From: Escherichia coli
GTDB lineage: Bacteria; Pseudomonadota; Gammaproteobacteria; Enterobacterales; Enterobacteriaceae
Length of the DNA: 64,000 bases
Direction: 5' to 3' (one strand)
Assembly (NCBI RefSeq): GCF_001677475.2
Contig: NZ_CP012497.1
Below the pieces are notes generated by a model. The model was not told the origin of the DNA, searched no databases, and saw only the letters and a list, made by a program, of their open reading frames with translations. A program made the position numbers and the translations under genes. Numbering within the stretch: the first letter of the stretch is position 1; each line of letters begins with the position of its first letter. Positions 16,783 to 33,462 of the stretch are shown one piece after another.

Positions 16783-17067
16783 ATGCAGATTTTGATTTTT
16801 TTAATGTCCATTATTAGTGGAACCTATTTATTTCTTACTGGAGTTAGGCGTGGAGCTTATAAGCCATGTTTTTTACATTGGCTTGAAGCATGGCTGCTTG
16901 CCATAAAAGGTGGTTTTGTTGGTTTTTGTCTTGCAGAAGTTCAGTGGGGAAACTCATTTTTGAATGTGGTTGCTTTTTTGATATGTAGTTGGAATAGCCA
17001 TTTTGTATTAAGAATAACCAAAATATGGGTTTTTCACTTGATTTACGAATGTATTGGCAAATTATGA
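16783..17067 (+). CDS. Hypothetical small hydrophobic protein
   Basis: 94-aa ORF with hydrophobic segments in the AT-rich region between cin and lydA; coding status uncertain. Confidence 0.2.
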   Translation: MQILIFLMSIISGTYLFLTGVRRGAYKPCFLHWLEAWLLAIKGGFVGFCLAEVQWGNSFLNVVAFLICSWNSHFVLRITKIWVFHLIYECIGKL

Positions 17068-17127
17068 ACAACCAGATGAGAAGTTACTTTGCATACCATT
17101 ACCTCCTGACAACGTAGGAGGGAACTT

Positions 17128-17457
17128 GTGCTTGACACACAGGAATTAGCTCCAGTTGCTATTGCGCTCCTGCTTTCAGTAATTGGTGGGATAGGCACGT
17201 TCCTGATGGATGTCCGAGACGGTCGCCAGTCTGGCAATTTGTTGGGATTGGTTACGGAGATCTTTGTTGCAGTGACAGCTGGCGCGGTGGCGTACCTATT
17301 GGGGCAACACGAGGGCTGGGAGTTATCAATTACGTACTTAATGGTAACGATAGCCAGCAATAACGGTCATGAGGTGATTTCAGGGATGAAACGAGTGAAT
17401 ATCGATAGCATTCTGAATGTTCTTACAAGTTTGGTGAAAAAGGGAGGCGGGAAATGA
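17128..17457 (+). CDS. lydA: Holin LydA-like
   Basis: 109 aa with hydrophobic transmembrane segments; first gene of the operon after cin. Confidence 0.55.
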   Translation: MLDTQELAPVAIALLLSVIGGIGTFLMDVRDGRQSGNLLGLVTEIFVAVTAGAVAYLLGQHEGWELSITYLMVTIASNNGHEVISGMKRVNIDSILNVLTSLVKKGGGK

Positions 17458-17897
17458 TTGGCTGGGGTGTATGCGTTCTTGCGTTAGCCTTAGCCGATCG
17501 CTATTTGCTAAAACGCAAGGACATCACGCATTTAGAACTTGGTGATGTGGAAATTAAACCGGGTTTCATCCGGGTGCCGTTCAAATACCGGTCTAAATTC
17601 CCGTTTTTGCGCGGCGCAACGGTCAGATATTGGATCCGCGATGTTCAGAAGCCGACGACAGTGATTGAAGGCGAACAACGTTGTCTGACGTCAGCTGAAC
17701 AGGGCGAAAACAGTGAATGGTTGTACATACCCACTGAATATATGGGTAAAGGAGAGCGACTGTGGCATTTCAACGTCATGGTTACGCATGGCGACTCGTT
17801 CATTAACCCGTTGTATCGGATTTTCCCTGTTACTCAGCAAATCCGCAGAAGTTACGTAATAAATCTCGCACAGGATGTGTCAGATGACGAAAAATAA
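17454..17897 (+). CDS. lydB: LydB-like (antiholin position)
   Basis: 147 aa, N-terminal transmembrane segment, 4-bp overlap with lydA. Confidence 0.45.
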   Translation: MIGWGVCVLALALADRYLLKRKDITHLELGDVEIKPGFIRVPFKYRSKFPFLRGATVRYWIRDVQKPTTVIEGEQRCLTSAEQGENSEWLYIPTEYMGKGERLWHFNVMVTHGDSFINPLYRIFPVTQQIRRSYVINLAQDVSDDEK

Positions 17898-27608: not shown

Positions 27609-28383
27609 TTTCCACCTCTTCCGTGGTGTTTTCTTGCAGTTCTGTTAATGCAGCACGACATAGGTTCCGGGCATTGGCTATAGCCACACTTTTGACTTCA
27701 TCCGTCATCGTGCAGGTAATGTACTGATCGAGTTCTTCAGCGCGGATGATGCTTTTGCCAATCAGAAACTGTATTTGCCATAGCAGATCGGCATCCATAA
27801 TCAGAATTTCTGCCGGGCCTTCAGGGCCAGCCGGGAAGGAAACATAAGACTGTTTGCCCAGGCCGACAACTCGACAACTTGCTTCAAGAATTGCGCGCTT
27901 GAGGTCTGACTTTATAACGGAAACAGGTTGATTTTCACCAGTGATTACGCCGTTGACATGGAAAGGCATGTAGCTTGAAATACGCTCCACTTTCCACACG
28001 CCAGCAAGCGATCCTTCATGCAGCACAATGGGGGTAACCGCGAGTTTCATCTCACCATATAACTGCTGGCAGATAGCTGGATTGCTGAATACATCTAAAG
28101 GCTCACATTCAAACAGCGGCGCAATCTGCATGAGGTCCATCATGGTCATCCCTGGGGTACGAGCAGTAATGAATCTGCGCATACCAGTATCCATTGCGCT
28201 CCAGATTGCTACACCATGCTTTTTGCTCACTTCTTCAGTAAAGCCAAGGTGGCACATGATGGTTTTTTCGATAGCCAGATCAGAGATCGAAACCTTTTCG
28301 CCAGGCACACCATCATTATTGATGGTCACTTCGACACTCTGACCATTACGCAGGCGGTATTGAATTGCTTTAGTATTTTCCAC
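27601..28383 (-). CDS. Hypothetical protein (middle gene of ssb-linked operon)
   Basis: 260 aa; 8-bp overlap with the downstream gene, 6-bp gap from the upstream gene. Confidence 0.45.
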   Translation of the reverse strand: MENTKAIQYRLRNGQSVEVTINNDGVPGEKVSISDLAIEKTIMCHLGFTEEVSKKHGVAIWSAMDTGMRRFITARTPGMTMMDLMQIAPLFECEPLDVFSNPAICQQLYGEMKLAVTPIVLHEGSLAGVWKVERISSYMPFHVNGVITGENQPVSVIKSDLKRAILEASCRVVGLGKQSYVSFPAGPEGPAEILIMDADLLWQIQFLIGKSIIRAEELDQYITCTMTDEVKSVAIANARNLCRAALTELQENTTEEVESD

Positions 28384-28389
28384 GTTAAA

Positions 28390-29118
28390 TCACTCCACTA
28401 CAAACCAGTCACATGCCAGTAAATCATCCACAGACGGCAACCAAACGCTGTCCATATTTTGTGCATCTTTCAATACAAAATGGTCACCATAAGGAACGTG
28501 AATGCCGTGTAAATTGACGCTTCCAGCGAGAACTAACCAGCAGAATTGCTTTTCGCCTTTCCACTCGCGTCGGGCAACTTTCTTGCCTTCCTTCAACCAC
28601 ATTAGCGCGTCAGAGAAGTCGGCTGCTTCAAGGTCGATTTCTTCTTGTGTGGTAATGATGCCACCGGCAGCAATAGTTACGTCCCTGGCTGTAATGAATG
28701 TCACCCCATTGTGACCTTCAATGCTAAGCGATACCTCATTTTCGAAGAAGTCGTTAGTCCGACTAAAGCCTTCTTCAAATGTTTTTTCTGGTGAATAGGA
28801 CAGATAACCGTCCTCATAACCGAGCAGATAGCCGCCAGTATCTGGTCGGTGTTTTTGCAAAAACGCTGCATCAACACGAACCGTTACGCCTTGGGGGTCC
28901 ATTAATGTGATATAGCCACAAGCAGGGGTATTATCAATCAATGAGATAATCTCGATATCTTTGATTTTCGATGCACTAACGATTTTGTGAGCTTTGTATT
29001 TGGGAAGGAACTTAAAAAGCTCTTTCGTTGCCATTTTATTCATAGTCTTTTCTCTGCTTAAAATTTGATGTATTGCGCCTTCAGGTGGGGAGGAATGTTT
29101 TCCCACCAGCGAAAGCAA
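28390..29118 (-). CDS. Hypothetical protein with C-terminal DUF2829-like (Tad2-like) motif
   Basis: C-terminus [25 protein letters not shown]...[18 protein letters not shown] resembles the DUF2829 signature as I recall it; true start probably an internal Met (MNKMATKEL) near 29040. Confidence 0.4.
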
Positions 29119-29713
29119 TGCCTCGGGGTGTTCTTTTCGTGAAAAGCGCGTGCCATTGCCAGCTTTGGCGTTTTTTAGCGAGTTCGTGCTTTTGTCGGCG
29201 TCTGGACCACCGCTTTTCTTTCAGTCGTTTTTGAATATCGTCGTCAAAGTCCATTGGAGGTTCGTTATTGGCGTTGCTCTGAGGTTTACCGCCACCACTG
29301 TATTGCTGGTGGTTTTGAGGTTGGTTTGATTGCCCCCAGCCATTTGAGGACTGTGAATCGTCACGGCGAGCGCCGATCATTTGCATGGTGCCGCCCTGGC
29401 TGACGATAATTTCCGTCGTGTAACGTTCTACACCGGCGTCATCTGTCCACTTACGGGTTTTAAGTTTCCCTTCGATGTAGACCTGAGAACCTTTTCGTAA
29501 ATACTCACTCGCAATTTCAGCAAGTTTTCCGAACAAAACGACTTTATGCCATTCTGTTTGCTCTTTCTGTTGGTCCGTTTGCTTGTCGCGCCATGATTCA
29601 TTCGTTGCGATGCTGAGTCTTCCGACCGCGCCGCCATTTGGTATATACCTGATCTCCGGGTCTTGCCCCAGGGTACCAATCAGGATGACTTTGTTTACAC
29701 CGCGTTGTGCCAC
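29081..29713 (-). CDS. ssb: Single-stranded DNA-binding protein; annotated ORF has an unusual C-terminal extension
   Basis: OB-fold N-terminus [23 protein letters not shown]..., Gly/Gln-rich linker, acidic tip PPMDFDDDI at residues 152-160; the canonical IPF ending is absent and the frame runs 50 more codons. Confidence 0.8.
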
Positions 29714-29749: not shown

Positions 29750-29882
29750 AATGTATATCTTTGAAACGTAGCTAACAAGTGATTTGCATTATCCTGTACC
29801 TTCTAAAGGGATCGAGTCAGTCGGTATTGGCTGTGAATGGGTGTTTGTCCTGGAGCGTAAAAAATTCGCTTATGAGGTCTTT

Positions 29883-30440
29883 ATGAAGGGAAAAACAGCC
29901 GCAGGAGGCGGTGCAATTTGCGCTATCGCGGTGATGATTACCATCGTGATGGGTAATGGCAATGTGCGAACCAACCAGGCGGGGCTTGAGCTTATCGGAA
30001 ACGCTGAAGGTTGCCGACGTGATCCATACATGTGCCCGGCGGGGGTATGGACTGACGGGATCGGTAATACACACGGGGTAACGCCGGGTGTGCGAAAAAC
30101 AGACCAGCAAATCGCCGCTGATTGGGAAAAGAATATCCTGATCGCTGAACGCTGTATTAATCAGCACTTCCGGGGCAAAGACATGCCCGATAATGCCTTC
30201 AGTGCAATGACAAGCGCGGCATTCAATATGGGATGCAATAGCTTACGGACCTACTACAGCAAAGCGCGAGGCATGCGAGTTGAAACGTCCATCCACAAGT
30301 GGGCGCAGAAAGGGGAATGGGTGAATATGTGTAACCATCTCCCTGATTTCGTGAACAGTAACGGCGTGCCCCTGCGAGGTTTAAAGATTCGCCGTGAAAA
30401 AGAACGCCAGCTTTGCCTGACGGGACTGGTCAATGAATAA
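29883..30440 (+). CDS. lyz: SAR endolysin Lyz (T4-lysozyme family)
   Basis: 185 aa from internal Met MKGKTAAGGGAICAIAVMITIVMGNGN (SAR-type N-terminal membrane segment); the ORF-track start at 29784 is an upstream extension. Confidence 0.85.
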   Translation: MKGKTAAGGGAICAIAVMITIVMGNGNVRTNQAGLELIGNAEGCRRDPYMCPAGVWTDGIGNTHGVTPGVRKTDQQIAADWEKNILIAERCINQHFRGKDMPDNAFSAMTSAAFNMGCNSLRTYYSKARGMRVETSIHKWAQKGEWVNMCNHLPDFVNSNGVPLRGLKIRREKERQLCLTGLVNE

Positions 30441-30687
30441 ACTCCGGCAGCTCCGCCGACTTTCGACAATGAAGTTATCGCTGGCGGCGATAGTTTTTGA
30501 CTCGATTTTCATGGCGGTATATGTGCTCAATGAGACGTGGCCACTGGAACCGCTATTGTATGCCGGGCTTCGGCTGTGCCTGACATTTTTGAGCATGGCT
30601 GCGAGATTGATGCAGCAGAAAGAAACTGCTTCAGATTGTCCACGCCGCGCGGTGCGCAAATATATGGCACGCAGGCGAAGGAGATAA
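30433..30687 (+). CDS. Small membrane protein downstream of lyz
   Basis: 84 aa, two hydrophobic segments, Arg-rich C-terminus; overlaps the lyz stop; followed by a terminator. Confidence 0.3.
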   Translation: MNKLRQLRRLSTMKLSLAAIVFDSIFMAVYVLNETWPLEPLLYAGLRLCLTFLSMAARLMQQKETASDCPRRAVRKYMARRRRR

Positions 30688-30698
30688 TAGTTAACGAG

Positions 30699-30727
30699 AA
30701 CCCCGGCAGCCGCCGGGGTTATTTTTG
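30699..30727. terminator. Rho-independent terminator
   Basis: CCCCGGC-AGC-CGCCGGGG hairpin followed by TTATTTTT. Confidence 0.55.
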
Positions 30728-30731
30728 GTGG

Positions 30732-33462
<2,731 letters not shown>

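Follow-up and report, generated by a model that had tools for sequence, protein, structure and literature searches.

The window, by which we mean the whole 64,000-nucleotide stretch of Escherichia coli DNA that was analysed, has the gene order ssb-lyz-lydD-pro-prt of the annotated phage P1 genome (NC_005856), with pro convergent and 3' of lydD. An earlier note on this DNA had pointed to an 84-aa ORF with two hydrophobic segments and an Arg-rich tail that overlaps the lyz stop codon and is followed by a terminator, and all of these features are indeed present at 30433-30727 (Table 1). The encoded protein is 100% identical in amino acid sequence to P1 LydD (P1_gp014, annotated as "putative holin") and matches the PHROGs family phrog_21930 ("holin") at 9e-59. 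At the DNA level, P1, P7 and further Punavirus genomes match the region with 96.8-98.8% identity; the local identity of the lydD region to P1 is 98.6%, and the five differences from P1 within lydD are all synonymous. Matches to lydD were found in 494 plasmid records, and the ORF carries an antiholin label in some GenBank and plasmid records (H7; H39, H55). The identical protein, encoded after lyz and before the convergent pro, identifies the gene as the P1 orthologue. Taken together, we conclude with high confidence that this ORF is the lydD gene of a P1-like phage (genus Punavirus), that it is the second gene of a late lyz-lydD operon and that it encodes a pinholin. The gene was already named in the 2004 annotation of the P1 genome (Lobocka et al. 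2004) and was characterised experimentally in 2022; the observation is real, but it is not new.

Table 1 Features of the lyz-lydD operon and of the unlinked lydA/lydB operon in the window
Feature	Position	Strand	Description
LPdar	17081-17099		Promoter ahead of the lydA/lydB operon
lydA	17128-17457	+	Canonical holin; 100% identity to the annotated P1 gene (blastn)
lydB	17454-17897	+	Antiholin; 99% identity to the annotated P1 gene (blastn)
LPlyz	29777-29795	+	Late promoter AAGTGATTTGCATTATCCT, identical to annotated P1 LPlyz; annotation transferred from P1
lyz	29883-30440	+	SAR endolysin, 185 aa; protein identical to P1 Lyz
lydD	30433-30687	+	ATG start; 84 aa; very probable pinholin with two TMDs; second gene, after lyz
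lydE	30537-30752	+	GTG start; 71 aa; out of frame, overlaps part of the 3' half of lydD; "putative antiholin" in the P1 annotation
Terminator	30699-30727	+	Intrinsic terminator-like hairpin and T-run; closes the lyz-lydD operon

The lyz gene differs from its P1 counterpart at seven nucleotides, all of them at third codon positions, and its product matches Pfam Phage_lysozyme at 2e-22 and the PHROGs endolysin family phrog_7 at 7e-69. The region 5' of lyz was compared with P1 by blastn and MAFFT, and LPlyz lies one nucleotide left of where the P1 coordinates would put it, owing to a 1-nt difference in an A-run 5' of lyz. This run, at 29855-29865 in the lyz 5' untranslated region, has six A in the window and five in P1. 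Since the lyz TAA occupies 30438-30440 and the lydD ATG lies at 30433, the two genes share 8 nt (ATGAATAA, reading ...GTC A ATG AAT AA). The Shine-Dalgarno match 5' of this ATG is weak. Twelve bases past the lydD stop codon begins a hairpin (30699-30720) of nine pairs, seven of them G-C, with a 4-nt loop and the tail ATTTTTGG; it dominates the minimum free energy fold of 30680-30735 (-19.5 kcal/mol, z = -2.3 versus shuffles). P1 has the same stem with one loop change.

The earlier note had also associated the small frame with lyz rather than with lydA/lydB, and this linkage stands: lydD overlaps lyz, and lydA/lydB are about 12.5 kb away at 17128-17897. Just 5' of LPdar and lydA, an ORF in the lydC position (16783-17067, plus strand) encodes a 94-aa hydrophobic protein with 30% identity to P1 LydC, apparently a holin-like allele that has either been replaced or diverged strongly. 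Two further differences from P1 were seen close to lyz. In ssb (29081-29713, minus strand), a 15-bp deletion relative to P1 near 29215-29235 removes the last two codons (Pro-Phe) and the stop; the ORF runs for 48 extra codons (210 aa versus 162 aa in P1), and in the window the protein no longer has DDDIPF, the canonical C-terminal tip through which SSB recruits its partners. A segment of ~660 bp at ~28380-29040, in the isaA region, is absent from P1 at that place and carries most of a 242-aa ORF (28390-29118, minus strand) of unknown function.

Its length alone does not make the lydD ORF a gene, since chance produces many overlapping ORFs of comparable size in the window, and together with the weak Shine-Dalgarno match this would suit a chance open frame without expression. 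We therefore examined the frame in four divergent lydD lineages with 77-85% amino acid identity, represented by Cronobacter phage JK004 and by P1-like contigs from Salmonella, Klebsiella aerogenes and a faecal metagenome. All four keep an open frame of exactly 84 codons, even though synonymous sites are near or past saturation (dS relative to the window from 1.8 to undefined; dN 0.14-0.19). The dN/dS ratio is 0.06-0.18 over all computable pairs, and 61 of the 103 variable columns fall at codon position 3. The loss of the frame in relatives, which the earlier note had named as the outcome that would speak against its proposal, was thus not observed. In these divergent relatives, a convergent ProQ-like gene replaces pro 3' of lydD and the ssb-lyz-lydD block is kept; an unrelated hairpin with a T-run lies at the same place as in the window, directly 3' of lydD. 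Because ssb-lyz-lydD and a hairpin persist while the 3' gene changes, the conserved unit is lyz-lydD-terminator. Strong purifying selection on a frame of fixed length, the plasmid records that match it and the published phenotypes of lydD mutants (PMC9025707) leave practically no room for a chance frame. Conservation makes lydD a real, constrained gene.

Unlike lydD, the overlapping lydE frame is not constrained. In relatives it is interrupted by stops at varying positions, and over the shared bases dN/dS is 1.4-3.8 in the lydE frame versus 0.08-0.29 in the lydD frame. Five of the six differences between the window and P1 in lydE alter an amino acid. The last third of lydE is the translated terminator hairpin and T-run, and a transcript ending there would therefore be without the lydE stop codon. 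No family match for lydE was found in Pfam, PHROGs or NCBIfam. Consistent with this, removal of lydE had no lysis phenotype and made no difference to lysis by a lyz+lydD plasmid (PMC9025707). The possibility that lydE encodes an o-spanin or an antipinholin was considered and rejected in view of the stops in relatives, the dN/dS above 1, the non-synonymous differences and the lack of a phenotype on removal. It is probable that lydE is not a functional gene, and an artefact of the P1 annotation would follow as a corollary if LydD belongs to the distinct pinholin family proposed below.

LydD itself has been studied by Bednarek et al. (2022, Int J Mol Sci 23:4231, PMC9025707), who named it a pinholin working with the SAR endolysin Lyz; the holin-like lysis accessory envisaged in the earlier note is thereby borne out. 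In that study, a plasmid with lyz and lydD caused faster and more complete lysis of E. coli than one with lyz alone, and Lyz and LydD lysed cells with no other P1 protein present. A P1 lydA lydD mutant formed no plaques; lydA and lydA lydC mutants did. Loss of lydD delayed lysis in liquid culture, where LydD was accessory only and could not lyse E. coli cells without LydA. When lyz was replaced by lambda R, a cytoplasmic endolysin, lydD was without effect, and LydD likewise failed to support lambda R in a two-plasmid system. Induction of lydD alone lowered colony counts with no lysis, and in lydC lydD mutants the lysis morphology shifted from the SAR-endolysin/pinholin type to the canonical type. 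The pinholin label draws on this genetic specificity and on lethality. The same authors attributed the spanin function of P1 to ppfA and mlp, genes of another operon, and noted that LydD departs from the prototype S21-68 in its strongly basic N-terminus and in lacking a glycine zipper in TMD2 (PMC9025707).

The protein sequence agrees with a small membrane protein. The Kyte-Doolittle profile (19-residue window) has maxima of 1.89 at residues 15-33 and 1.42 at 41-59, and the two hydrophobic segments, for which the earlier note had suggested a transmembrane prediction, extend over about 15-33 and about 41-60. The net charge is +5 in the N-terminus (residues 1-14), -2 in the loop (33-39) and +8 in the tail (61-84), which ends in RRRRR. 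By the positive-inside rule, an N-in/C-in topology is predicted. An AlphaFold model based on a shallow alignment, and of no more than moderate confidence (pLDDT 68, pTM 0.37), has helices at 3-32 and 40-83 connected by a loop at 33-39. TMD2 reads LLYAGLRLCLTFLSMAARLM and is without a GxxxG/A/S zipper. In its length of 84 aa, its two hydrophobic segments, its C-terminal charge of +8 and the adjoining endolysin gene, LydD has the general characteristics of a holin.

We further searched 1.84 billion representative proteins with phmmer and obtained 12 matches to LydD at E <= 0.001. The small remote homologues are 59-82 aa long and 31-52% identical to LydD in the alignment, and four of them (P0009, P0011, P0012 and P0013) carry Pfam DUF7940 (PF25612), a family of unknown function. 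Against this family, LydD reaches 22.8 bits (E = 1.4e-4), short of the gathering cut-off of 27 bits, and its homology to the family is supported by the phmmer match of 4e-13 to the DUF7940 member P0009. DUF7940 members align over both LydD TMDs and have the same invariant residues, whereas LydD of the P1 clade has an extra 20-residue Arg-rich tail in place of the short, nearly neutral tails of the remote homologues. A Pfam scan of LydD at E <= 1 gave nothing but DUF7940, and no Pfam holin family. NCBIfam lacks a model that covers LydD, LydE or any of the remote homologues, nothing was obtained from a profile search against PDB sequences, and a full-text literature search on DUF7940 found no papers.

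Genomic context was retrievable for four remote homologues (L008, L009, L010 and L011) and for Aeromonas phages, the latter found by tblastn of the remote homologues against phage records. In L008, L009, L011 and Aeromonas phage AeroV_348, the start of the LydD-like gene lies inside, or directly abuts, the 3' end of a lysozyme gene, and these lysozymes have a P1-Lyz-type SAR N-terminus, the conserved Cys and an EGCRRDPY-like region. A lysozyme also precedes the lydD homologue in L003, L005 and L007, so that the conservation downstream of lyz that the earlier note had asked about extends to these genomes; all six lysozymes that were translated (L003, L005, L008, L009, L011 and AeroV_348) have the P1-Lyz-type SAR N-terminus. 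In L011 and AeroV_348, a DUF2570 or Rz-like spanin gene comes next, which gives a cassette of SAR lysozyme, LydD-like protein and spanin with no other holin annotated nearby. For L010, no lysozyme was found on the 5.5-kb contig. Pairs of a LydD-like protein and a SAR lysozyme occur in P1-like plasmid-prophages, Aeromonas myophages and uncultured phages. This co-inheritance with P1-Lyz-type SAR lysozymes supports the view that the function of LydD is tied specifically to such endolysins.

Compact lysis cassettes with a LydD-like gene were also noted at 2151-3607 in L009, 1348-1704 in L010, 1125-1517 in L011 and 1247-2399 in L013. In the L009 cassette, the SAR lysozyme is preceded by a 109-aa protein that has a single TMD and a coiled coil, and the LydD-like gene is followed by a 132-aa protein whose TMD is N-terminal; L010 has a 118-aa TMD and coiled-coil protein similar to the former.

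In the 12-sequence alignment, A19, D23, E34, P40, Y43, R47, L50, T51, M55, A57 and R58 are invariant. The Aeromonas phage homologue keeps D23, R47, T51 and R58 and has Gln at position 34. On a helical wheel of TMD2, the invariant or nearly invariant Y43, R47, T51, S54 and R58 fall within 200-280 degrees; this helix is amphipathic (hydrophobic moment p = 0.006 versus shuffles), and its polar face is the conserved face. In TMD1, L15, A19, D23, F26 and Y30 fall within 0-80 degrees. From these patterns, we infer that the charged residues D23 and R47/R58 may line a pinhole or may form an ion pair between TMD1 and TMD2. We tentatively propose, as a reading that is quite possible although we would stop short of calling it probable, that DUF7940/LydD-type proteins form a distinct pinholin family that is translationally coupled to P1-Lyz-type SAR endolysins and is perhaps of a non-S21 kind, with a stably N-in hairpin in which the conserved Asp within TMD1 and the Arg residues of the TMD2 polar face would gate or line the pinhole.

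The published account, in which LydD depolarises the membrane and the membrane-tethered Lyz is therefore released and activated, is the best supported. In its terms, late in infection LPlyz would drive a bicistronic transcript that ends at the 30699-30727 hairpin. Ribosomes that terminate on lyz may restart at the overlapping ATG, and such translational coupling would tie the output of LydD to that of Lyz. Once inserted in the inner membrane, LydD would adopt an N-in/C-in topology as a helical hairpin: TMD1 would span ~15-32 and TMD2 ~41-60, joined on the periplasmic side by a short, acidic loop (NETWPLEP). As the protein accumulates, it would form lesions, presumably small in pore size, and the membrane potential, and with it the proton motive force, would collapse. 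On depolarisation, the SAR domain of Lyz would leave the bilayer and the enzyme would become active, degrading the wall over the whole cell. LydD may act in this way together with the unlinked LydA, its antagonist LydB and LydC, tuning the timing of lysis to host and growth conditions.

Several observations sit less easily with the pinholin account. LydD lacks features of S21-68, having an N-terminal charge of +5 and no glycine zipper; it has no Pfam holin match, only the sub-cut-off one to DUF7940; its Arg-rich tail is confined to the P1 clade; and no lysozyme accompanies the remote homologue L010 on its 5.5-kb contig. Among the alternatives, the chief one left is that LydD could be a release factor specific for SAR endolysins, forming no pore and requiring no prior collapse of the membrane potential. 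The model for such a protein is the releasin gp25 of phage Mu, a membrane protein that, as Chamblee et al. are said to have reported in mBio in 2022, helps the signal-anchor of the endolysin to leave the bilayer. Proteins of the gp25 family, DUF2730, combine one TMD at the N-terminus with a domain in the cytoplasm. The close co-inheritance of the LydD family with one type of SAR lysozyme would fit such a role, as would the basic N-terminus and the missing glycine zipper, which speak against an S21-like pathway. So would the published findings that LydD helps Lyz and not lambda R, and the fact that its pinholin label comes from genetics, not from direct depolarisation data (PMC9025707). However, LydD alone cuts colony-forming units, as a holin or pinholin would and a pure release factor would not (PMC9025707). 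Moreover, LydD has two amphipathic TMDs with conserved polar faces and not a single anchor with a cytoplasmic domain, its Pfam scan at E <= 1 gives no DUF2730, and in the Aeromonas phage cassette the LydD-like protein is the sole holin candidate beside a lysozyme and a spanin. A releasin-like role is therefore disfavoured, and we regard it as unlikely.

Still less likely is that LydD is an antiholin or a regulator that modulates LydA (or LydC) and has no membrane action of its own, although this would account for the antiholin or "putative antiholin" label in some records, for the accessory role beside LydA in liquid culture (PMC9025707) and for the N-terminal positive charges, which resemble the antiholin form of S21. 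The antiholin-like option, which the earlier note had left beside the holin-like one, is contradicted by the lydD mutants, in which lysis comes late; without an antiholin, it should come earlier. The lethality of LydD on its own and the sufficiency of LydD and Lyz among P1 proteins for lysis (PMC9025707) point the same way, and LydD and LydA have no detectable sequence similarity. We also considered a dual start, in which M1 and M13 would give holin and antiholin forms, and rejected it. Only the P1 clade keeps M13 throughout, remote homologues having L, I or V there, and no purine-rich Shine-Dalgarno sequence precedes this codon; with M13 not conserved beyond that clade, an antiholin form of this type is unlikely. 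The spanin-like option of the earlier note fares no better. In this reading, lydD, or the lydD/lydE pair, would be an outer-membrane disruption module comparable to embedded Rz/Rz1, a notion suggested by position only, since two small ORFs overlap out of frame 3' of the endolysin gene. Two-component spanins of the Rz/Rz1 kind pair an i-spanin, anchored by an N-terminal TMD and carrying a long periplasmic coiled coil, with a lipobox-bearing o-spanin lipoprotein. LydD has no lipobox and no periplasmic domain beyond a loop of ~7 residues, and lydE, which is not conserved, has neither a lipobox nor a signal peptide. The P1 spanins have been assigned to ppfA and mlp (PMC9025707), and in relatives a distinct gene, Rz-like or DUF2570, follows the one for the LydD homologue, which makes a spanin-like role hardly conceivable. 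The pinholin account thus remains the reading that we prefer.

As a discovery, the finding carries little weight, the gene having been named in 2004 and functionally characterised in 2022. What our analysis adds is independent evolutionary evidence that lydD is constrained and that the overlapping lydE is not, together with a connection from DUF7940, whose members are of unknown function, to a pinholin that has been studied in experiments. In addition, D23, R47 and R58, which do not vary in the 12-sequence alignment and are kept in the Aeromonas phage homologue, are obvious candidates for mutagenesis to learn how a non-S21 pinholin triggers.

Compared with known systems, lydD of the window is closest to that of P1 and P7, with which it shares the protein, the gene position, the 8-nt overlap with lyz, the late promoter and the terminator stem; relative to P1, it differs in the five synonymous positions and in one base of the terminator loop, and elsewhere the lydC allele and the 3' end of ssb differ. 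Within the same phage, the class II holins LydA and LydC are, like LydD, small two-TMD lysis proteins that cooperate with Lyz, but they are encoded in another operon 12.5 kb away, and no sequence similarity to LydD was detected. In contrast to LydD, LydA supports the canonical endolysin R. A functional parallel is the pinholin S21-68 of the lambdoid phage 21, which works with the SAR endolysin R21. Both proteins are small, have two TMDs and are predicted to be N-in/C-in; both are encoded beside a SAR endolysin, and both support SAR but not cytoplasmic endolysins. The gene order is different, since P1 lydD lies 3' of the endolysin gene and the pinholin gene of phage 21 lies upstream of it. No sequence homology between LydD and the S21 family was found in the Pfam scan at E <= 1, which gave DUF7940 only, or in the profile search of PDB sequences. 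S21-type pinholins are marked by a weakly hydrophobic TMD1 that can be externalised, a nearly uncharged N-terminus ahead of it and a glycine zipper in TMD2. The N-terminus of LydD carries +5 compared with about +1 in S21, in which a charge of +5 would block the exit of TMD1, and, unlike S21, LydD has no glycine zipper and has the invariant charged residues D23, R47 and R58 inside its TMDs.
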